Source: an uncultured Acidimicrobiaceae bacterium
Lineage (GTDB): Bacteria; Actinomycetota; Acidimicrobiia; Acidimicrobiales; Bog-793
Direction of reading: 5' to 3'
Assembly (NCBI GenBank): GCA_963841155.1
Contig: CAWJBM010000005.1
Location: forward strand, 264,475 to 328,474
Length of the DNA stretch: 64,000 nt
Part shown: positions 2,955 through 61,296 of the stretch, in pieces
Layout of the letters: each line of letters starts with the position of its first letter
How positions within the stretch are numbered: the stretch's first letter is position 1
The notes under the pieces: generated by a model
The model's database searches: none
Seen by the model: only the letters and a program-made list of their open reading frames with translations
What the model was told of the DNA's origin: nothing
Translations under genes and position numbers: made by a program

Positions 2955-4010
2955 ATGCGGCTCAGGCGCAAGATCGTGACCGCCGGTTTGAGCGTCGCGT
3001 GCGGCGTCGCCCTTGCCGCGTGCGGCCAGCAAGTCGTCACGCACGTGCAGGCAGGTGACACCGTCCACTCGGCTTTGACCAGCGTGTTCAAGAGTCCCAC
3101 GACCCGATTCGTCATCACCGGACAGGATCTTCCCGGAGCGGCAAGCATCGCCGACGGCAGCTTCTCCATCGTGCTCACGACCTCACTAGCGAGCGGTGCG
3201 AGCAGCTCCGTCCTGCGTGGTGACCAGTCCGTGGATGTCTCGATCCTCCACGAGTCCACGGACCTCGTCGACCTCCGCCTGGTAGGCAAATCGGGGTATT
3301 TCCGGGTGGATCTCAGAGGCATCGCCGACTTGCTCGGCCAGGGCGGCCAAGCGACGTTCGCTTCCACAGCGAGCAGCATCAACAAGCTGGCCGGCCATCG
3401 GGGCCTCGGATATCTCCACCAGATCCTGCTCGGCAAGTGGGTAGGCGTCTCGTCGAGCACGCTCATCGCTCTAGCCCGCAAACTCGCGGGCAAGATGCCG
3501 TCAGCCGCGTCATCGATTTCGAACCTGCAGAAGCTCAGCCAGAACCTGCAGAAGATCAACCAAATGAAGCTCACTGTCTCAGCCTCCTTCGCGCAGTGCC
3601 TACGGACGTGGCTGAGCATCCACAAGAAGACGGCCGACGAGTACTCGCTCAGCCTTCCCGCTCGATCCTTTGGCGCTTCACTTGTCGAGAAGCTGGCCAA
3701 GCCTCTGGCAGCGGACCTGAACGAGCCGTCCCCGTCTCGAGCAGAGCTTTCAAAGGCGATCGGCGAGATCTCCGCCAAGCTTTCTCTCCGTGCGAACCTG
3801 TGGATCTCGAAAGGGTCGGTGAGCAGGCTCCAGGTCTTCGTCCCCAACTCCAGCGCCTACCTTCTGATCGGTGTGTCCCATCCGGCGGTGCCGGTTGAGG
3901 TTCCAGCCAACTCGACCATGCTGACGGTCGGCAACTTGAGCGTCCTGTTCGGAGCCTCGCCCCTAGGCGGGCTCAAGGACTTGGGTTCGGTTAGCAGTCT
4001 CCTCTCGTGA
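2955..4010 (+). CDS. Putative secreted lipoprotein, function unknown
   Basis: 351-aa ORF with signal/lipobox-like N-terminus 'LSVACGVALAACGQQ'. No recognisable catalytic motif. Confidence 0.6.
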   Translation: MRLRRKIVTAGLSVACGVALAACGQQVVTHVQAGDTVHSALTSVFKSPTTRFVITGQDLPGAASIADGSFSIVLTTSLASGASSSVLRGDQSVDVSILHESTDLVDLRLVGKSGYFRVDLRGIADLLGQGGQATFASTASSINKLAGHRGLGYLHQILLGKWVGVSSSTLIALARKLAGKMPSAASSISNLQKLSQNLQKINQMKLTVSASFAQCLRTWLSIHKKTADEYSLSLPARSFGASLVEKLAKPLAADLNEPSPSRAELSKAIGEISAKLSLRANLWISKGSVSRLQVFVPNSSAYLLIGVSHPAVPVEVPANSTMLTVGNLSVLFGASPLGGLKDLGSVSSLLS

Positions 4011-4356
4011 CCTGAGCCAGACAAACACCGAAGCTCGCGGTCCCGTCTGGCTCCGTTTCGCGTCCCAGGACGGCCCTGGTCGAGTGCCGGCGCCGCCTTG
4101 CCCCAAGATCCAGTCAGGTTCCTCCTCGGGCGGTGCGAACCTGAGGATCACTGGCCCCGCGATGTCCGAGATGTGAACGGTTCTCCGCTCTCATTGCCAT
4201 GGACCTCTGAGCTTCGACCCGGTTCTGCCAAGGTCCGTCCTTGCCGGCGCCGAAACCCGGCGGGCCAAACCCGTGAGCGCCCCTTGCTCGACATGTCCAC
4301 GACCCGGACGTCGTGGCGATCGTCAGGGAAGCGTTGACGGCGAGCGGGCTTGCCCG

Positions 4357-4607
4357 AACCGCCTCGTCCTGGAGATCACCGGGAGCGTGGCGCTCGTCGA
4401 TGCCCTCGAGACCAAGAGCGTGATCGAGCACCTTGGCCACTACGGGGTGACTGTCGAGCTCGGCCCGAAGCTCGAGATGACCGTGTTCGCCGAGGAGACC
4501 GAGACGCAAGGACAGCTCGAACGCCTCCGACACCTCGGCCGCGGGTCGGCCAGGGCTACCTCTTCTCACCTGCCATATCGGCCGGCCAGGTGTCGGCCAT
4601 GCTCGAC
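4357..4607 (+). pseudogene. Degraded EAL-domain remnant (frameshifted, internally deleted)
   Basis: Frame 1 reads 'LVLEITGSVALVD...LGHYGVTVEL...TQGQLERLRHLG'. Frame 3 continues 'GQGYLFSPAISAGQVSAMLD'. This mimics the C-terminal half of the EAL domain of ORF 7-2445 but lacks the DDFGTGYSSL block. Confidence 0.45.
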
Positions 4608-4841
4608 CGGGAGCCGGACAAGTGGGCGCAGAGGTTGGCGCCGTCAACTACGCACCAGGAAGACCAACAGGGAAACCAACCCGCTGACCGACACCCAGTC
4701 ACACACCATCACCAGGACTTACGCGCGTAGATCGAGGGTCCGCCGGCCCGGTCCGCCAGGACCCTCCACCTCGGGCGTTTCGCCCTTGGCCCGGCGTCCC
4801 TCGCCCTGGCTCGTTGTCGAGACCTTTGGCGGACAGTGGAC

Positions 4842-6002
4842 TTACGGCGCCCACGACACGGTGGCGGCGCTGTTCATGCCTGCGAGCGGTTTCCCGTTCA
4901 CAGTAAGCGGCCCGGAGGCGATCTCTTCCAACACGGGGGCCTCTGTCCCCCCCAGCTTGATGTGCCCGGCCTGGTAGGCGAGATCACTGCCCGCCGCAGT
5001 GGCCACCAACGCCCCCTTCTTGTCGCCGGTCAGCACTCCCCGAGGGGACACCCACAGCACCGCGGTGCGCATCGTGCTCTGTTGAGTGCAGTCGACCATG
5101 GTGGCGTCGAGGGTGTCCTTCGGGTCGAAGACGAACGACTGCACCCGCCAGCGCGGCCCGGCCGGCAGGGAGGCCTGCTTGATGGTGCGCGTCGTCTCGT
5201 TGACCACGAATATCCGCGACGCAGGCCCAATACCGCACCCGTCGGTGTGGTCGCCAAGCTCGGCAGCAAAGACGGTGCCGTCGGGCGAGACGGCGGTCAC
5301 CTCGTACAGAGGACCGTTGGAGGCGGGTTTGGGCAGCGCCTGGAGCTTGGTCACCGCGCCGGCGAGGCTGACACGCCACAGGCGGGTGCCGGACTTGATG
5401 TCCGGCCCCATGATGAAGCCACCCGAATAGCCCACAACGTCGTCACTCGTGGGGACGGCTACCGACCGGCGGCTCACATGCCCGTCGACGTTCAAGGTGG
5501 TGAGCGTCGACGGTGAGTTCAGATCCGCGCCAGGCACAAGGAGCGCCAGCCCGGAACTGCTCACGGACAGACCCTCGGAGTACTGGAACTGGGTGGGATA
5601 CGACATGCGCCGGTGAGTGACGGTGTCGTACCAGCCGATCGCTCCCCGGCCGGTGCTCAGGTTGGTTTGCTCCCAGCCAAGGTAGCGCCCGCTGGCAGAC
5701 CACTGGAAGTCGGTGACGGTCATCGGCTTGGCCGTGCCCTTCACGTCGACGGGCCCAATTACTTTGCGCGCGCCGTCCTGCACCAGGGTCAGCCTGCCCG
5801 CCGCGAGTACCGCGAGTGCAGGAACTCTCTTTCCGGCTGTCGCCCGGAGGTTCTGGGCCGCACCGGTACCCGCCAGCAGAGCGAGAACCAGCACGGCGAT
5901 GACCAGGCCGGTGATTGAGCGGCACGCCGCAATGGCCCGCCGTGTGGGGAAGAAACGTGTCAGGTTCACACGTGCAGTGATATCAAAACGGCACGGAGTC
6001 AT
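4842..6002 (-). CDS. Membrane-anchored extracytoplasmic protein, function unknown
   Basis: Long ORF. Start placed at internal Met 'MTPCRF'. One TM/signal anchor 'ITGLVIAVLVLALLAGTGAA', followed by a beta-rich sequence. Start uncertain. Confidence 0.5.
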   Translation of the reverse strand: MTPCRFDITARVNLTRFFPTRRAIAACRSITGLVIAVLVLALLAGTGAAQNLRATAGKRVPALAVLAAGRLTLVQDGARKVIGPVDVKGTAKPMTVTDFQWSASGRYLGWEQTNLSTGRGAIGWYDTVTHRRMSYPTQFQYSEGLSVSSSGLALLVPGADLNSPSTLTTLNVDGHVSRRSVAVPTSDDVVGYSGGFIMGPDIKSGTRLWRVSLAGAVTKLQALPKPASNGPLYEVTAVSPDGTVFAAELGDHTDGCGIGPASRIFVVNETTRTIKQASLPAGPRWRVQSFVFDPKDTLDATMVDCTQQSTMRTAVLWVSPRGVLTGDKKGALVATAAGSDLAYQAGHIKLGGTEAPVLEEIASGPLTVNGKPLAGMNSAATVSWAP

Positions 6003-52062: not shown

Positions 52063-52200
52063 GCGGTCCACCCGCACATGCCGGCGCAGGAAGTCGACGC
52101 GATCGACGGTGAGCCCGAAGCATTCGCCCTGGCGCAGTCCCATTGCGACGGCAAAGACGATCAAGGCCCTGTAAGGCTCAGGAACCACCGGCAAGAACGA
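52063..52200 (-). pseudogene. Integrase internal fragment fused to yoeB'
   Basis: 52063-52159 is almost identical to 63905-64000. Encodes '[40 protein letters not shown]'. Confidence 0.65.
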
Positions 52201-52416
52201 AAACGCAGGCCAGACGCCGGTTTGGCGCGCCTGGCGGGAGGTGGTGATGGCGAGCCGGCCTGTAGGCAGGGAACAGCTCAACAGGGCCTCTGACCTGCGG
52301 TTTTGTCTCTCCAAAAGGGGCTCGGTCCTCAGCTGGTCCTCAGTTCGCCGGGTTCTCGGACCCTCTGAGCGCAGTTCGGACGACCGATAGGCAGCCCGAT
52401 CTGAGACCATGAAGCG

Positions 52417-54784: not shown

Positions 54785-54795
54785 GAGGAACACGT

Positions 54796-55115
54796 TTGCA
54801 ACTTTCAGTTGGCGAGGAGGTAGTGCGCGTGGCGTGGATGCGGATGATGGGAGCCGACTCTGTCGACTACCACGAGCACACCGTCGCCGGCCGCGGTGAC
54901 GACCCGGTCGCTGCCTCCGGTGAGTACTACGCCTCGCGAGGAGAGACTCCGATGTCCTGGGGAGGCTCCGGGCGCGGGCTGCTCGGCCTGGCCGGTGAGG
55001 TGGACATCGCTGATTACAGGGCCCTCTTCGGCATCGGTGGTGCCCACGACCCTCGCACCGGCCGGCGTCTCGTGGGCTGCCTGCGTCCCGGTCTGGAGCT
55101 CGTGGTCTCCCCTCA
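54796..55115 (+). pseudogene. MobF (TrwC/TraA-type) relaxase, 5' fragment upstream of the RIT insertion
   Basis: 'MGADSVDYHEHTV...GEYYASRGETPMSWGGSGRGLLGLAGEVDIADYRALFGIGGAHDPRTGRRL...LELVVSP', then the reading frame runs into the RIT end. Confidence 0.75.
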
Positions 55116-55224
55116 TTTATGCCGCGCTCGGCATAAGGAGATTTATGCCGAGTTGTTGATTATGCCGAGTAGACGCACGAATGTCCCGAGTTTCGGGGGG
55201 AGCCGGTCCGAGGAGTCGGCATAA

Positions 55225-56214
55225 TCACAGCGAGTCCAAGAAGGCGAGCAGCGCGTCCGGAGGACGGTAGCGGCCCGGTGGCGTGCCGGGTGGGGCGGCA
55301 AGAGCGAGCGCCCGCTCCTTCATAGCGAGGTCGGCGTGGAGGTAGATCTGCACCGTCGAGAGCTGCTCGTGCCCGAGCCAGAGCGCGATGGTCGAGATGT
55401 CCACGCCTCCTTCACGAAGAAGCATTGCGCACGTGTGCCTCAGCACGTGGGGGGTGACGTGCTTTGCGCCAAGCGACGGGCAGCGTTGCCCGGCCACATC
55501 GGCGTGACGCGCCACGAGAGACTGGACGGCGTCGGAGCTGAGCGGCCCTCCACGGCGACTGGGGAACAGCGGGTCCGCCGGGTCACCCTGGCGCTCGTCG
55601 AGCCAGATGGCGAGCGCCGCTACTGCGTCCGGCCCGAGTGGTGTGACGCGCTCCTTGCGTCCCTTGCCGAGGCATCGCACGTGCGCACCTCTCGAGAGCA
55701 CGACGTCTGTGCAGCGCAGCCCGGTGAGCTCCCCGAGTCGCAAGCCCGTGTGCACCGCGAGCATGAGCAGGGCATGATCGCGCCGTCCGCACCAGCAAGA
55801 GCGATCGGGAGCAGCCAGCAACGCCTCGACCTCGGGGCGGGTGAGGAAACAGACCACCGCCCGCTCGAAGCGCTTCTGCGGGATCGCCAGCACGCGCTGG
55901 ATCGATGCCCCATGTTCGGGGTGGGAGAGCGCGGCGAAGCCGAACAAGGCGCGGATGGCGGCCAGGCGGGCATTGCGTGTCCGGGCGCTGTTGTTCCTCT
56001 GGCGCTCGAGGTGCTCAAGGAACGCCCCGATGAGTGGAGCGTCGAGATCGGCCAGGTCGAGCTCCTGTGGCGGGCGGCGGGTCCGTTCCGAGGCAAAGCG
56101 GACGAGCAGCCGGATGGTGTCGCGATATGAGGCGACGGTGGCTGGGCTCGCCTCTTGCTGGAGGGCGAGCCTCGTCGTGAAGAACGCCTCGAGAGTCGGC
56201 GCGAGGCGGCTCAC
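55225..56214 (-). CDS. Tyrosine recombinase, third gene of the trio (RitC-like)
   Basis: 329 aa. 'TGLRLGELTGL', 'TPHVLRHTCAMLL', 'WLGHEQLSTVQIYLH'. Confidence 0.85.
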   Translation of the reverse strand: MSRLAPTLEAFFTTRLALQQEASPATVASYRDTIRLLVRFASERTRRPPQELDLADLDAPLIGAFLEHLERQRNNSARTRNARLAAIRALFGFAALSHPEHGASIQRVLAIPQKRFERAVVCFLTRPEVEALLAAPDRSCWCGRRDHALLMLAVHTGLRLGELTGLRCTDVVLSRGAHVRCLGKGRKERVTPLGPDAVAALAIWLDERQGDPADPLFPSRRGGPLSSDAVQSLVARHADVAGQRCPSLGAKHVTPHVLRHTCAMLLREGGVDISTIALWLGHEQLSTVQIYLHADLAMKERALALAAPPGTPPGRYRPPDALLAFLDSL

Positions 56215-57137
56215 CTGAGACCCCCGAGCGTCCGAGCGGCTCGGGCCCGGGCGACTTCCATCAGCTCGGGCACCGCTTCCAAGTACCAGTAGGTGGACGA
56301 AGGGTTGGCATGGCCGAGCACCTTGGACAACAAGGGCATCGCCCGATCGACGTCGACACCGTCGCGGTGCCAGTCCATCAGCGTGTTCACGGCGAAGCTA
56401 TGGCGAATGTCGTGCAGACGAGGGCGCCGCCGCCCACCTCGCGCCTCGATCCCGGCGCTTGTCACCAGCTCGGCGAATGTGTGATCGGCGCTGCAGGACG
56501 CCAGACAGTTGCCGGCGAGGCTGACGAGCAGAGTCGGCGACGCCGCCTGCGGGGCGAGCCGCTCGCGGAGCTCTCGATAGCGAGCCAGCGCCGTGAGAGT
56601 GCTCGCGCTGAGGGGGACCTCCCGCTCCGGTGAACGCTTGTGGGGACGGACCGCCAGGCACGAGCAGTCGAAGTCGACGTCACTGGGCAGGAGTCGGGCC
56701 GCTTCGCCGAAACGGATCCCGCTCACCGACAGCAGCCCGATCAAGACCTCGTAGGTGGCGGCGCGAAGCAGAGGCGAGAGCCTGGCCGCGGCGGCCATCA
56801 AGGCACCGATCTCTGCGTCCGAGTAGATGTGGGGCGTGAGCCGCGAGTACCGCCGTGGCAGCAGGTCCGGCGTAGGCACCTCGGTCCTCTCGTCGAAGGC
56901 AACGAGGTACTTGGCGAACCCGCGCACTGCCCCGAGCCGCTGGCTGCGCGTGACGGGCAGTGAGCCCGGAGAGTCGTTGGCCCATGCCAGCGCCTGCTCG
57001 GTGGTGACATGGTCAGCACCTGATCGCTCCATGAAGGCGACGAAGCTCACCAGCAAGTGGTTGCACTCGTTGGCGACGTAGCCGAGCGAGCGCCGCAGGA
57101 CGGTGTACTCGGCGAGGTGTTCTTTGAGCTCGCTCAC
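56211..57137 (-). CDS. Tyrosine recombinase, second gene of the trio (RitB-like)
   Basis: 308 aa. 'SGIRFGEAARL', 'LHDIRHSFAVNTL', 'LGHANPSSTYWYL'. 4-nt overlaps on both sides. Confidence 0.85.
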   Translation of the reverse strand: MSELKEHLAEYTVLRRSLGYVANECNHLLVSFVAFMERSGADHVTTEQALAWANDSPGSLPVTRSQRLGAVRGFAKYLVAFDERTEVPTPDLLPRRYSRLTPHIYSDAEIGALMAAAARLSPLLRAATYEVLIGLLSVSGIRFGEAARLLPSDVDFDCSCLAVRPHKRSPEREVPLSASTLTALARYRELRERLAPQAASPTLLVSLAGNCLASCSADHTFAELVTSAGIEARGGRRRPRLHDIRHSFAVNTLMDWHRDGVDVDRAMPLLSKVLGHANPSSTYWYLEAVPELMEVARARAARTLGGLR

Positions 57138-58390
57138 CGCGCTCCTCCCGGCCAGTACCGTGCGAGCGCAGCGACGGTCGGTTGGGGGACGTCGACATAG
57201 ACCGTCGTCATCGAGAAGTGGTGGTGGCGAAGCACCTCGGCGATCCCGACGAGCGCAGTGCCTGTCCGGTGCATCTCGCTCGCTGCGTGCTGGCGCAGGC
57301 GCCTTGGCCCGAAGGGCACAAAGCCCGCCCTGCGGGACGCGTTCTGGACGACGGACTGCACGCCGACGAAGTCAAGGCGAGTCCATGGAGCCCTCGCCCG
57401 AAGGAACACCTCGCGGAACTCCTGGCGTCGCGGTCGACCTCTGTGCAGGTAAGCGGCAATGGCAGCCCCGACGTCTGGTGGAAGGGGCATGCGCTCGTGC
57501 CGGTCGCCCTTGCCGCGCACGAGTATCTCGCCGTGGTGCCAGTCGATGTCGTCGAGGGTGAGCGCCGCCACCTCGCAAGGCCTGAGCCCGAGCCGGCTGC
57601 ACAGCAGTATGACCGCGTAGTCACGCCGCCCCGCCGCCCGCCGCCGGTCACAGCTCGCGAGCAGACGGGAGATCTCGCCCTGGCTGAGCGCAGGGGGCCG
57701 CGGCGCGGGGCGTTGCCGGGCGAGCTTGGGAACGGCTGATGCCACAGCGCTGGTGACCATCCCCTCGACCTGTAAGAACCGCAGAAGCGACGAGGTCGAC
57801 AAGACCGCTGAGCGTGCGGTGCTGGCGGTCGCATCTCGGCAGGTCTGGACTACATAACAGGTGACATCACAGGCTCGCAGCCCCGTCAGTTCGCGCCGAT
57901 CGCCAAGGACGGAGTCGAGGAATCGGCGAGCGCCCACGAGATGTGCCACCACGGTCTTTTCCGCCAGCCCCCGCTCGTGCACGAGGTAGCTCCGATACGA
58001 CGCGAGCAGATCGCCGAAGCGTCCAGCGTCATCGGGCCGTTCCGGGACGACCCCGGCGCCACGCAGGTAGGTGAGCGGCAGCCGCATCGTGAGCGGGCTC
58101 GTCAATGTGGACCGCCCGCGGGCGGTCCGCCAGTCAGCAAAGCAAACGGCAGTCGACTCGTCGAGATCGCAGGCTCGGAGGCCTTCCGACGCCAGCCACG
58201 AGCTCACGCCGGCGAAGTAGGTGAGCCGCTGCTGCACGCTCCAGAAGGTGTATCCGCGCGCCTCGAGGTGGCGTCGATAGCCGTCCGCGTAAGGTCCGAG
58301 GGGACCTGGAGGTGTCTGGAACCTGTGCTCTCTCATCGCTTCCTCCATCTCGGACCGTCGGTCCGTTAGGAGAAAGCTTCGGGTGAACAC
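57134..58390 (-). CDS. Tyrosine recombinase, first gene of the trio (RitA-like)
   Basis: 418 aa. 'LGLRPCEVAALTLDDIDW', 'LRQHAASEMHRTG', 'LRHHHFSMTTVYV'. Confidence 0.85.
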   Translation of the reverse strand: MFTRSFLLTDRRSEMEEAMREHRFQTPPGPLGPYADGYRRHLEARGYTFWSVQQRLTYFAGVSSWLASEGLRACDLDESTAVCFADWRTARGRSTLTSPLTMRLPLTYLRGAGVVPERPDDAGRFGDLLASYRSYLVHERGLAEKTVVAHLVGARRFLDSVLGDRRELTGLRACDVTCYVVQTCRDATASTARSAVLSTSSLLRFLQVEGMVTSAVASAVPKLARQRPAPRPPALSQGEISRLLASCDRRRAAGRRDYAVILLCSRLGLRPCEVAALTLDDIDWHHGEILVRGKGDRHERMPLPPDVGAAIAAYLHRGRPRRQEFREVFLRARAPWTRLDFVGVQSVVQNASRRAGFVPFGPRRLRQHAASEMHRTGTALVGIAEVLRHHHFSMTTVYVDVPQPTVAALARYWPGGAR

Positions 58391-58488
58391 CCGCGATTAT
58401 GCCGAGCTGCTCATCTGATCCGCTTCCCAAAGCAGGCACGATGTCGACGACTCAGCGTCTAGTCGGCACAATCACCAACTCGGCATAA

Positions 58489-61296
58489 CCTCACAAATCA
58501 GTGGCAGAGCTCGGGGTGATCGGACGCGCCGAGGACATGCACGAGATCGTCGACGCCGAGCGCGACGCCACTCTTCAGTACCTGGACCGTCTCGTCGCCG
58601 AACAAGGTGGCAGGCGTGGACGTGCTCAGACCCGCGTCGCCACTGGTGGGCTTATCTGGGCGACCTCCCGGCACGCGACGACCCGGGCTGGCGATCCCCA
58701 GGTGCACGAACATGTCCTGATCGCGAATGCCGTGTTGATGCGAGACGCCCGCGGAGGGTGGAAAGGCGCCGACACGGCGTTCTTGCGCGACCACCTGCAT
58801 GCGGCGACGGCCGTCGGACGTATGGCCGCTGCCGCCAAGGCGGTCAAGCTCGGATACGGGATCGTCGCCGACCCGGGCCCGTCCGGGCGGCTCGGAGGAT
58901 GGGCGATCGCCGGCATCCCGGACGAGGTCTGTGAGCTGCACTCCACCCGCTCTGCGCAGATCACCGCCGTGGTCGGACCGGATGCCTCGTATGCGGCACG
59001 GTCGGTCGCGGCCCGGGCCACGCGGGGCCGCAAGGCGGAAGTCCGCGTAGAGGACCTGTTGACCCGCTGGCAGGACGAGCTGACCACTGCTGGTCATCCC
59101 CCGGCCGATCTCCTCGCTGAGATCGAGGCGGCGGGTTCCACCTATGAGCTCCCGGAGGTCGACCTCGAGCAGCTCGCCGGAGAACTACTCGGCCCGGACG
59201 GGCGCCTGGCGGAAGAGAAGACCTTCACCCGAGGCGACGTGATCATCGCCGCCGCTCCGCACCTTCACGGCCAGCCCCTTTCTGCGCTCGACAAGGCCGT
59301 CGAGACAGTCCTCGCGAATGACGACACGGTCGCCCTGCCGGTCGTGACGGGGAGCAGGGAGCAGGTCTGGACGGCACGCTGTGTCCTCGCCGACGAGGAG
59401 CGCATCGCAACTGTGGCTGAGTCACTGACTGACGATGACGGGCCGAAGGTCGAAGAACAGGCCGCTCTCGATGCTGTCACCCTGCTCGAGGAGCACCTCG
59501 GCGTCCCGCTCACCACCGCCCAGCACGAGGTGGCGATCGGACTCATGGTGAGTGGGCACCGTTTTGATCTCGTCATGGGTGTAGCCGGATCCGGGAAGAC
59601 AACGACGCTGGCGGCGGTCCGCGAGGGTTTCGAGAGCGCCGGTTACACCGTGCTCGGCACCGCGACCTCGGGACAAGCAGCCAAGAACCTCGGAGACGGC
59701 GCCGGGATCGAGTCGCGCACCATTGCCTCGCTTTCCTGGCGGCTGGACCACAACACACTCGAGCTCTCCGACCAGCACGTGCTGATCCTCGACGAGGGCG
59801 CCATGACCTCAGATATGGACCTCGCCCGTCTTCTCACCGCGGTCGAGCGATCGGGGGCAAAGCTGATCGTCGTAGGAGACGACCGCCAGCTCGGTGCCAT
59901 CGGTCCTGGCGGCGCACTCACCGCCCTCGCCGAACGCCACCCCGAGCAGCTCTGGGCGCTCACCGACAACCTGCGCCAGACCAATCCCGCCGAACGCGTC
60001 GCGCTCTGTGAGCTCCGAGACGGCAACATCGCCGCGGCGGTCGGCTGGTATGCCCGCAACGGGCGGGTCCATCCCGTGCCCGACCGCCGGCGAGCGGTCA
60101 CCGGCATGATCCGTGCCTGGGCGGCCGACATCGACGCCGGACAGGACCCCCTACTTCTCGCCTACCGACGCGACAACGTCGAGACGCTCAACCGCGCTGC
60201 TCGAAACCTCTGGGAACGGTCCGGGAGGCTCACCGGCCCCGAGCTCGTAGCACCCGGCGGGCGCACCTACCGGGCCGGGGACCGGGTCATCGCCCTTGCC
60301 CCAGGACCTCAAGGCGCCTGGGTCACGTCACAAGCTGCCCAGGTCACCGCCGTCGATCCTGAGGCCCAGACCCTCACTGCGATCACGCCCGACGGCCGCC
60401 AGCTGCACATGGGCGCCGATGACATCGGCGCGGACCACCTCGGCTACGGCTACGCCATCACCGCTCATCGCGTCCAGGGCACGACGGTCGAAGTCGCGCA
60501 CGTCCTCGACGACGGCGGTGGCCGGGAGCTCGCCTATGTGGCCATGAGCCGCGCGAGGAGCACCAGCCACGTGTACACCACCGCACCGGACCTCGACCAA
60601 GCCGCCCAACGCCTCACCTGGTCCTGGGATGACGAGCGCCGCCAGCAATGGGCCACTGACCAGGCCCGGGCCGCCCAGCATCTCGTCGAGCTTCGTGCCG
60701 AGCACAGAGAACTCGTCGGGAGCATCCCGCCTGACGTCACCGACCAGCTTGCTCACGTCCACGAACAACAGGCCGCGCTCGAAAAGGACCTTGCCGACCT
60801 CCGGACCGGCGCCGGGCGGTGGGCGAAGACACCCGTTCGACCTAGCTACGAGGATCTCCAACTTGCGCGCAGAGCTCACGAAGAGATCCTCCGCCGCGTC
60901 CAAAATCCCCGCCGTGGACTCCTCGCCCGGCACCGGAGCCGCGATGACCTCAAGACCAGTGCCGCCACCCTGCAAGCGGCCGAGCGTGCCTGGCAGCGCA
61001 CGACCGAACCTCACGCTCGGCTTATCGAGGGCGAGCGGTCACGGCTCACCACCGAGGAGTGCCGTTTAGAACAAGCACGGCAAGCAAGAGCAGAGTTCAT
61101 CGAGACCAAACCTGAGCTCATCGACCGGCTCAACCAACTGCACCGAGCCAGCCAGATTGCGCTGACCAGCTCACATTCCCATCGTTCCGCCGGCAGGAGT
61201 GTCCCGGCACCGTCCTTTAGCGGCCAGTCGCGGGATGCGGCGCTCGCGCACGAACCCCTCCCACTGCCCGCGGAACTCTTTGGTCGGGATCCCTAA
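58489..61296 (+). pseudogene. MobF relaxase-helicase, 3' portion downstream of the RIT insertion
   Basis: 'HKSVAELGVIG', histidine triad 'SRHATTRAGDPQVHEHVLIAN', RecD-like helicase 'GVAGSGKTTTL', 'VLILDEGAM', 'ITAHRVQGTTVE'. Confidence 0.8.

Follow-up and report, generated by a model that had tools for sequence, protein, structure and literature searches.

A 64,000-nucleotide stretch of contig CAWJBM010000005.1, assembled from an uncultured Acidimicrobiaceae bacterium and referred to below as the window, carries a MobF/TrwC relaxase gene that is interrupted by a RIT element, a mobile element with three tyrosine recombinase genes. The RIT element measures 3,373 bp (55116-58488 in window positions; Table 1). 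Its ritA, ritB and ritC genes are arranged in this order on the minus strand, and each gene overlaps the next by 4 nt. A fourth open reading frame for an accessory protein of the TnpC, Srap or GinD type was not found in the 3,373 bp, in which the recombinase genes fill positions 55225-58390. The candidate catalytic residues, read by eye from the translations, are HDIRH...GH...Y in RitB and HVLRH...GH...Y in RitC, and those of RitA are RRLRQH...RHH...Y, with an arginine replacing the first histidine. RitC matches the XerC/XerD-like models of NCBIfam below their cut-off. Because the relatives of ritA contain a stop at aligned codon 12, its true start is probably the ATG at position 58351, which would yield a product of 405 aa. 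Pfam and NCBIfam contain no RIT-specific profile. In a tblastn comparison, RitA matches the RIT genes of C. necator H16 plasmid pHG1 and of the A. aromaticum EbN1 plasmid with ~36% identity over 97% of the protein. The original prediction, which had been made from the letters of the window, described a relaxase gene split by a RIT element. All of the features that it described are located where it had placed them, and the family assignment is borne out by the three overlapping tyrosine recombinase genes, the 34-nt inverted repeats, the presence of identical copies and the homology to the archetypal elements.

Table 1. Features of the interrupted relaxase gene and of the RIT element (window positions)
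Feature	Coordinates	Strand	Description
MobF/TrwC relaxase, N-terminal fragment	54796..55110	+	Ends ...LELVVS; Pfam TrwC positions 3-81
N-side crossover hexamer CCTCAT	55111..55116		One letter off the empty-site hexamer
Palindromic cassette TTATGCC-GCGCTC-GGCATAA	55117..55136		20 nt; two back-to-back 7-nt arm motifs with a 6-nt centre
Internal hexamer GGAGAT	55137..55142		Reverse complement ATCTCC is the copy-3 target hexamer; putative spacer of the second attP-like site
RitC-proximal terminal inverted repeat	55143..55176		Two direct TTATGCCGAG arm copies (55143, 55160)
ritC	55225..56214	-	329 aa; Pfam Phage_integrase 3e-34 and SAM-like N domain; most Xer-like of the three
ritB	56211..57137	-	308-aa tyrosine recombinase; Pfam Phage_integrase 6e-19
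ritA	57134..58390	-	Tyrosine recombinase with long N-terminal extension; 418-aa open reading frame; Pfam Phage_integrase 2e-19, residues 235-401
RitA-proximal terminal inverted repeat	58455..58488		Ends ...CTCGGCATAA
C-side crossover hexamer CCTCAC	58489..58494		Codons Pro-His; same as the empty-site hexamer
MobF relaxase, C-terminal fragment	58495..61296	+	KSVAELG..., His triad, RecD-like AAA_30 helicase; Pfam TrwC 98-284, AAA_30 2e-51

The relaxase is divided into an N-terminal piece of residues 1-105 and a C-terminal piece of 931 aa. When position 55115 is joined in silico to position 58494, an open frame of 1040 codons results that reads ...LELVVSPHKSVAELG..., with VSPHKSV at the junction. 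The joined protein combines a TrwC domain, in which the Tyr region at the N-terminus, the S-x-P-K-S-V-S block and the His triad are all present, with a RecD-like helicase behind it, and it scores 147 bits against the NCBIfam MobF model (NF041492), whose cut-off is 100. Its alignment with the relaxase-domain structures of F TraI (2q7t, 1p4d) and R388 TrwC (1omh) is unbroken across the junction, where rpglelvvsphksvaelg is paired with RPGYDLTFSAPKSVSMMA; the homologous block in TraI and TrwC is DLTFSAPKSVS. A natural counterpart of the joined gene also exists. A search with the joined protein identified an uninterrupted allele of 1024 aa (P0001) that differs by one residue and whose N-terminus is identical to the N-terminal fragment in the window. 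This allele is present on four ENA metagenome contigs, which have the same neighbouring genes as the window and flanks that are 99.5-99.8% identical to it over 5-6 kb per side. The empty site on these contigs reads GTGGTCTCC-CCTCAC-AAATCAGTGG. The near-identical flanks and the empty site together indicate that the insertion was precise and recent. The original prediction had expected excision to restore a frame of about 1040 aa reading VSPHKSV, with a His triad and a RecD-like helicase, and had proposed that relatives be searched for the uninterrupted gene. The in silico join and the natural empty site agree with the restored frame, the Pfam TrwC and AAA_30 and NCBIfam MobF matches agree with the domain content, and the rebuilt frame aligns contiguously with intact MobF relaxases as well as with the TraI and TrwC structures. 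The insertion separates the catalytic Tyr region from the His triad and the helicase, which are encoded by different fragments, and an occupied gene would therefore be expected to yield no functional relaxase.

The genome (3.43 Mb in 6 contigs) contains three RIT copies that are 100% identical and five TrwC genes, three of which are split by a RIT element and two of which are intact. All three copies split different MobF genes at the two codons before the lysine of the conserved S-x-x-K-S-V-S block. Copy 1, that of the window, lies in ..LELVVS[PH]KSVAEL and is bordered by the hexamers CCTCAT and CCTCAC on the N and C sides, respectively; copy 2 lies in ..GFDLTFS[PH or PS]KSVSTAW, with CCTCAC and CCGAGC, and copy 3 in ..GFDLTFS[IS]KSISVMW, with ATCTCC on both sides. 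Rejoining relaxases 2 and 3 gives frames without a stop over 1210 codons, and their empty sites are predicted to read ACATTCAGT-N6-AAGAGCGTA and CTTTCTCG-N6-AAGTCGATT.

Comparison of the three copies resolves the ends of the element. The terminal inverted repeats, located by a repeat search, are 34 nt long and 91% complementary, and further copies of the arm are found at 55216-55225 (inverted) and 58397-58406 (forward). Outside the RitC-proximal repeat stands the palindromic cassette, which related RITs keep with a GAnnTC centre. In the orientation of the relaxase, the order in copies 1 and 2 is N-fragment-[hexamer]-TTATGCC-GCGCTC-GGCATAA-[GGAGAT]-TTATGCCGAG...body...CTCGGCATAA-[hexamer]-C-fragment. 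The body of copy 3 is inverted relative to its relaxase, and this copy ends in ...CTCGGCATAA-CCTCAC-TTATGCC-GCGCTC-GGCATAA-GGAGAT-target. The cassette thus adjoins the left end of copies 1 and 2 but the right end of copy 3, where its centre is the reverse complement, GAGCGC. Relative to the other two copies, copy 3 is circularly permuted. Between them, the copies define a joined-ends junction, inverted repeat (ritA side)-CCTCAC-TTATGCC-GCGCTC-GGCATAA-GGAGAT-inverted repeat (ritC side), which is an array of four 7-nt arms separated by 6-nt spacers (7-6-7-6-7-6-7). This array is opened at CCTCAC in copies 1 and 2 and at GGAGAT (ATCTCC on the other strand) in copy 3. Such a permutation implies a circular, or at least a joined-ends, intermediate that would possess two equivalent inverted attP-like sites, and the junction of this intermediate is predicted to read CTCGGCATAA-N6-TTATGCCGCGCTCGGCATAAGGAGATTTATGCCGAG. 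Inversion of the body was considered as the origin of the two orientations and rejected, because the cassette centre of copy 3 is also reverse-complemented and its GAGCGC fits a permutation of the whole junction.

The same target is used by relatives of the element. RitA scans of species genomes and metagenomes yielded 51 loci, among which six further lineages have RitA proteins 52-61% identical to that of the window, and every flank present in these lineages belongs to a TrwC gene that is interrupted at these same two codons. The relaxase reads GFPMSFS-PP at the cut in L022/L057, RPGMELVVS-PP in L023/L075, FS-AP and AP-KSVSLLYALG in L051, AGFGLTFS-PP in L052-54, PH-KSVAELGVIG in L055 and PS-KSVSVAWALA in L056; the junctions of L027 and L058 lie at the same codons. 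Counting the three copies of this genome and eight insertions from the six lineages, 11 of 11 independent insertions are on target, in both orientations. Chance is excluded by 11 insertions at one 6-nt position of genes of 3-3.6 kb. At all eight junctions whose N-terminal relaxase side is covered by sequence, the cassette is on that side; L055 and L056 show just the C side, which is free of the cassette, and L050 duplicates copy 3. Both permutations recur within a single lineage, E2 (L052 versus L055). In a maximum-likelihood tree, the RitA proteins of the elements that target the KSVS motif form a single clade with 100/99 support. The original prediction had described a clean insertion. The insertion is indeed precise, but it is not a one-off event and instead represents one case of strict site-specific homing to a relaxase motif. 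The target flanks have in common only the letters that the protein motif imposes, namely TT(C)-(TCG/AGT) in one flank and AAR-(TCN/AGC)-GT in the opposite flank. Recognition through a resemblance of attB to attP was considered and is unlikely, as the compiled target arms are unlike the TTATGCC arms.

The hexamers at the junctions indicate an exchange rather than a duplication. Among intact homologues of relaxase 2 (87-96% identical), FS-PS-KSVS is found in 32 of the 34 with a motif hit; one has PC, one has PP and none has PH. Since the homologues nearly all read PS, the CCGAGC of copy 2 is most likely the hexamer of the target itself, and CCTCAC, which encodes Pro-His and is the site hexamer of relaxase 1, would have been imported by the element. 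The target hexamer is therefore on the C side in both informative copies, as CCTCAC in copy 1 (N side CCTCAT) and as CCGAGC in copy 2 (N side CCTCAC), and the CCTCAT of copy 1 was probably brought in by the element. Unequal hexamers are also present in relatives, with CCGCCG/TCTCAG in L027, CCCCCA/CCGCCC in L058 and GCCCCC/GCTCCC in L051. Spacers that differ between the two sides argue against a target duplication of fixed length and for a coupling-type hexamer. The 5-bp repeat of the original prediction thus stands as an observation, CCTCA being present at 55111-55115 and at 58489-58493, and falls as a staggered-cut duplication, as it is part of a 6-nt crossover spacer. The reverse complements of the unused internal spacers are ATCTCC, CCTCAC, CCACCA, CCGCCA, GCCCCC, GCTCCC, GCCCAC and CCCAGT, which resemble a relaxase target hexamer in every element (IS, PH, PP, PP, AP, AP, AH and PS). 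By analogy, the spacers appear to behave like the travelling hexamers of Tn554 and of SEs (integrative elements that circularize with a strand bias). The PS and PP dipeptides of PH-type relaxases were also considered as swapped hexamers, an idea that is unsupported; the DNA of P0016 and P0018 is 1-2 nt away from CCTCAC.

Thus, we propose, with good confidence, that the insert is an intact and recently active RIT element whose clade shows site-specific homing to one stretch of DNA, that for the conserved MobF (F/V)-S-x-x-K-S-(V/I/L) motif, with crossover in the 6 nt that encode both x residues. The element would move through a circle or an equivalent joined-ends form. In this form, each inverted-repeat tip and the adjacent cassette arm would constitute a 7-6-7 core site, so that the circle would present two equivalent, inverted attP-like sites. 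The choice between these sites would set the orientation of the gene body, and the 20-nt cassette would come to lie on the N-terminal side of the relaxase either way. The 6-nt spacer would not need to match the target; as in the two informative copies, the target hexamer would stay on the inverted-repeat-tip (C-terminal) side and the carried hexamer would arrive on the cassette side. An exchange of 6 nt would also mean that excision always leaves the relaxase in frame. Because the target arms are unlike the TTATGCC arms, recognition may be split, and we speculate that one or two of the recombinases read the target and another reads the arms of the element.

Several observations weigh against this proposal. 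The fixed polarity of the hexamers has two informative cases only, copies 1 and 2, and the circle route is deduced only from the permutation. A test for excision footprints in intact relaxases returned only point differences of 1-2 nt. An intact MobF paralogue in the same genome (C4:628061-629005, L013), which shares ~95% identity with relaxase 3 across the 117 N-terminal residues that were compared, contains ATCTCC and flanks near-identical to those of copy 3, yet it is free of RIT. Most MobF genes in the class are likewise intact; TrwC occurs in 120 of 401 genomes, and the relaxase-targeting RIT clade was found only in G000. The empty C4 target and this rarity indicate that the target sequence alone does not predict occupancy. 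Moreover, the examples of the clade beyond this genome all come from metagenome contigs or metagenome-assembled genomes, and a cultured host of the clade was not found in PLSDB, in which the best RitA match is 43% identical.

The features at the junctions may be read in other ways. An ordinary transposon that inserts at random or weakly preferred sites would make CCTCA a 5-bp target-site duplication generated by staggered cleavage and repair, as the presence of CCTCA at both copy-1 junctions and of ATCTCC on both sides of copy 3 would suggest. However, the element encodes tyrosine recombinases only, and tyrosine recombinases do not make repair-type duplications. The hexamers of copy 2, L027 and L058 are unequal, and all 11 independent insertions are at one codon pair, so we consider this explanation highly improbable. 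We attach just as little weight to a scenario in which paralogous relaxase flanks recombined homologously or underwent gene conversion and so passed the element on. Relaxases 2 and 3 and the C4 paralogue are closely related (their N-fragments are 73% to 99% identical to a related contig), which could favour conversion among them, but relaxase 1 aligns weakly with relaxases 2 and 3, as judged via shared targets, and copy 3 differs from copies 1 and 2 by inversion and circular permutation. Furthermore, unrelated RIT lineages have entered diverse relaxases at this very codon, the two sides carry differing hexamers, and each flank matches its own relaxase family, with no tract of identity that decays outward. 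Misplacement of a repeated 3.4-kb element into relaxase genes during assembly has even less to commend it and can practically be dismissed. Three identical repeats in a 6-contig assembly are prone to misjoins, but an independent metagenome contig, L050, repeats the copy-3 junction (RitA 99.8% and RitB 100% identical over the parts compared), analogous junctions exist in six other lineages, and both flanks of each copy derive from one relaxase gene and rejoin in frame.

An explanation that deserves somewhat more attention, although we regard it as unlikely, is that the RIT element is a domesticated or semi-domesticated on/off switch whose regulated, precise excision restores the relaxase and times the transfer of the host element, by analogy with the skin and SPbeta intervening elements or with the Ll.LtrB intron in ltrB. 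An exchange of 6 nt never shifts the reading frame, joining the fragments gives an open frame for each of the three split relaxases, and occupied and empty alleles coexist in related populations, all of which a switch would explain. However, sister RIT clades reside in genes for transposases and an integrase, in which a switch would serve little purpose, and occupancy is rare. Selfish homing to a conserved 'safe' site accounts for the same facts.

The targets of other RIT clades extend the comparison. L046 and L048, whose RitA proteins are ~38% identical to that of the window and form their own clade in the tree, interrupt the Walker B codons in the helicase domain of MobF proteins; their junctions are ..VLVVD/EAAMVG, with GTGGAT on both sides, and ..VIID/EFGMG, with ATCGAC on both sides. 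According to Pfam, the interrupted gene encodes a Mu-like transposase in L024, an IS256 transposase in L076/L079, IS66 transposases in L044 and L085, a tyrosine integrase cut at HDLRH in L049 and, with a weak match, IS3 OrfA in L047. The targets of L061, L063, L077 and L083, which carry no Pfam name, are apparently transposases by motif reading by eye. The target frames of these other clades were set by hand, as picking of the longest open reading frame gave wrong frames in DNA of high G+C content. A more general and tentative idea, about which we are doubtful, is that RITs as a class are homing elements, each clade of which recognises a single conserved catalytic motif, at the DNA level, in a relaxase, helicase, transposase or integrase gene that belongs to another mobile element. 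One recombinase would read the TTATGCC arms and the others both target half-sites. The two inverted attP-like sites and the travelling 6-nt hexamer would allow insertion in either orientation and excision that is always in frame, and members of the relaxase clade could, after precise excision, reach new cells together with their conjugative host.

Further arrangements of RITs were noted among the collected loci. Plasmid RITs of the cultured Rhodococcus pseudokoreensis and Mycobacterium intracellulare (L095, L096 and L097) adjoin IS21 istA/istB or DDE-transposase genes; the unannotated gaps beside them may be split pseudogenes, and these plasmids are possible laboratory-tractable RIT homing systems. 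At least four RIT copies or fragments, including a RIT beside truncated ritA, ritB and ritC, are crowded into 17 kb in L045 (G276:C1:1-17000), which may reflect RITs within RITs or recombination debris. The whole contig of L061 and positions 3300-6700 of L076 have the cassette at both ends and flanks that are inverted copies of one transposase segment, a pattern that could arise by RIT-mediated inversion between two occupied targets or as an assembly hairpin. At ~2700 of L062, unrelated sequence follows GAATT and so disrupts the GAATTC centre of the cassette, where the palindrome itself may have been invaded by another insertion. Within the relaxase-targeting clade, the ritC gene of lineage E2 (L055 4245-7523, also L052-L054) is cut right after ...PHVLRHTC, which are the codons of the HxLRH active site of RitC itself. 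The insert, in which a tyrosine recombinase of 395 aa and a long open reading frame of >400 aa are encoded, is Tn554-like in appearance and constitutes a mobile element within a mobile element within a relaxase. In L027, ritA is broken by an insert of ~2.8 kb (3157-6001).

The relaxase of the window belongs to an island in which an RHH gene, an HTH_17 (Xis-like) gene, the relaxase gene, two cargo genes and an integrase gene at the window edge follow one another, in the same order as on the empty-site contigs. The island is bounded by an 88-nt imperfect direct repeat, 90% identical between 52184-52271 and 64665-64752, the second of which is just beyond the window. A tRNA was considered as the attachment site and discarded; there is no tRNA near the island, and the 88-nt direct repeat is found instead. 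A 128-nt fragment of an integrase gene at the left edge (within 52063-52271) is 97% identical to 63905-64032 (locus L092). The integrase fragment and the 88-nt repeat mark the ends of the island and suggest an earlier tandem or decayed copy. RIT occupancy would deprive a small integrative mobilisable element of its only relaxase. Near the beginning of the relaxase gene, whose N-fragment probably has its true start at 54829-54844, the four empty-site contigs (L009-L012) lack 32 nt (CACGTTTGCAACTTTCAGTTGGCGAGGAGGTA; window 54791-54822) just upstream of the relaxase start. These 32 nt are kept in the window and in L094. Their loss takes away a GAGGAGG ribosome-binding motif, and the 'intact' alleles may thus be poorly translated.

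To our knowledge, nobody has shown the movement or the targets of RIT elements, or their need for three recombinases, since they were described in 2009-2013. In a comparative table of 2023, target specificity, empty site and movement of RITs are all given as 'not tested' (PMC10214605). Their ends have been described as unclear, with 'no convincing' recombinase sites (PMC3414803), and mobilome sequencing detected no RIT circular junction (PMC5737581). The published insertions are isolated cases in a Tn6049-like transposase gene and in radC (PMC3414803, PMC5737581, PMC10214605), and our search of the literature for RIT together with relaxase found nothing. The RITs of Cupriavidus metallidurans CH34, C. 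necator pHG1 and A. aromaticum EbN1 (Van Houdt 2009/2012, PMC3414803; Ricker 2013) resemble the element described here in their overlapping A-B-C genes, size of ~3.4 kb, terminal inverted repeats of ~34 nt, identical multi-copy presence per genome and RitA homology. In contrast to these archetypes, for which no target specificity, empty site or mechanism has been published, a whole clade has one target here, the KSVS-motif DNA of MobF genes, and the ends can be read as a 7-6-7-6-7-6-7 array that offers two usable crossover spacers.

The element shares with Tn554, SEs and GInts (PMC10214605, PMC5385486) the use of multiple cooperating tyrosine recombinases, site specificity and the lack of a true duplication, and, to judge from the two informative copies, probably also a 6-bp flank-derived hexamer that is carried from the donor to the new site, as in Tn554 and SEs. 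However, it has three paralogous recombinases rather than two recombinases and accessory proteins, with no fourth protein of the TnpC, Srap or GinD type. Its palindromic cassette would provide two inverted attP-like sites and allow both orientations, and its target is a gene of another mobile element. The closest parallel in concept is provided by Ll.LtrB-type group II introns in relaxase genes (PMC1874635, PMC6003770, PMC7947834), which also home selfishly to a conserved relaxase stretch and whose removal restores the relaxase, tying the parasite to horizontal transfer. Unlike the RIT element, which must excise as DNA, the intron leaves at the RNA level and the relaxase is still made; the introns also hit different relaxase families and motifs. 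Precise interruption of an open reading frame and its in-frame, recombinase-mediated reconstitution are also known from skin in sigK, SPbeta in spsM and the nifD and fdxN elements. These are single-locus, developmentally regulated elements in host genes, whereas the RIT element is a multi-copy homing element in the genes of other mobile elements.

RIT elements occur in many bacterial phyla, and the locus described here supplies a base-resolved RIT target with a natural empty site. It also supplies the anatomy of the recombination sites with a predicted circle junction, and it points to hexamer exchange rather than duplication. What is new is a RIT clade with a defined MobF target, the permutation within one genome and the origin of the hexamers; the reaction pathway is deduced from static sequences. 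A transposon that parasitises the transfer gene of conjugative or mobilisable elements can stop these elements from spreading or, should its excision be regulated, determine when they spread. More generally, the relaxase-targeting RITs point to a natural integrase family that is aimed at DNA that is constrained by the protein it encodes and hence widely conserved.

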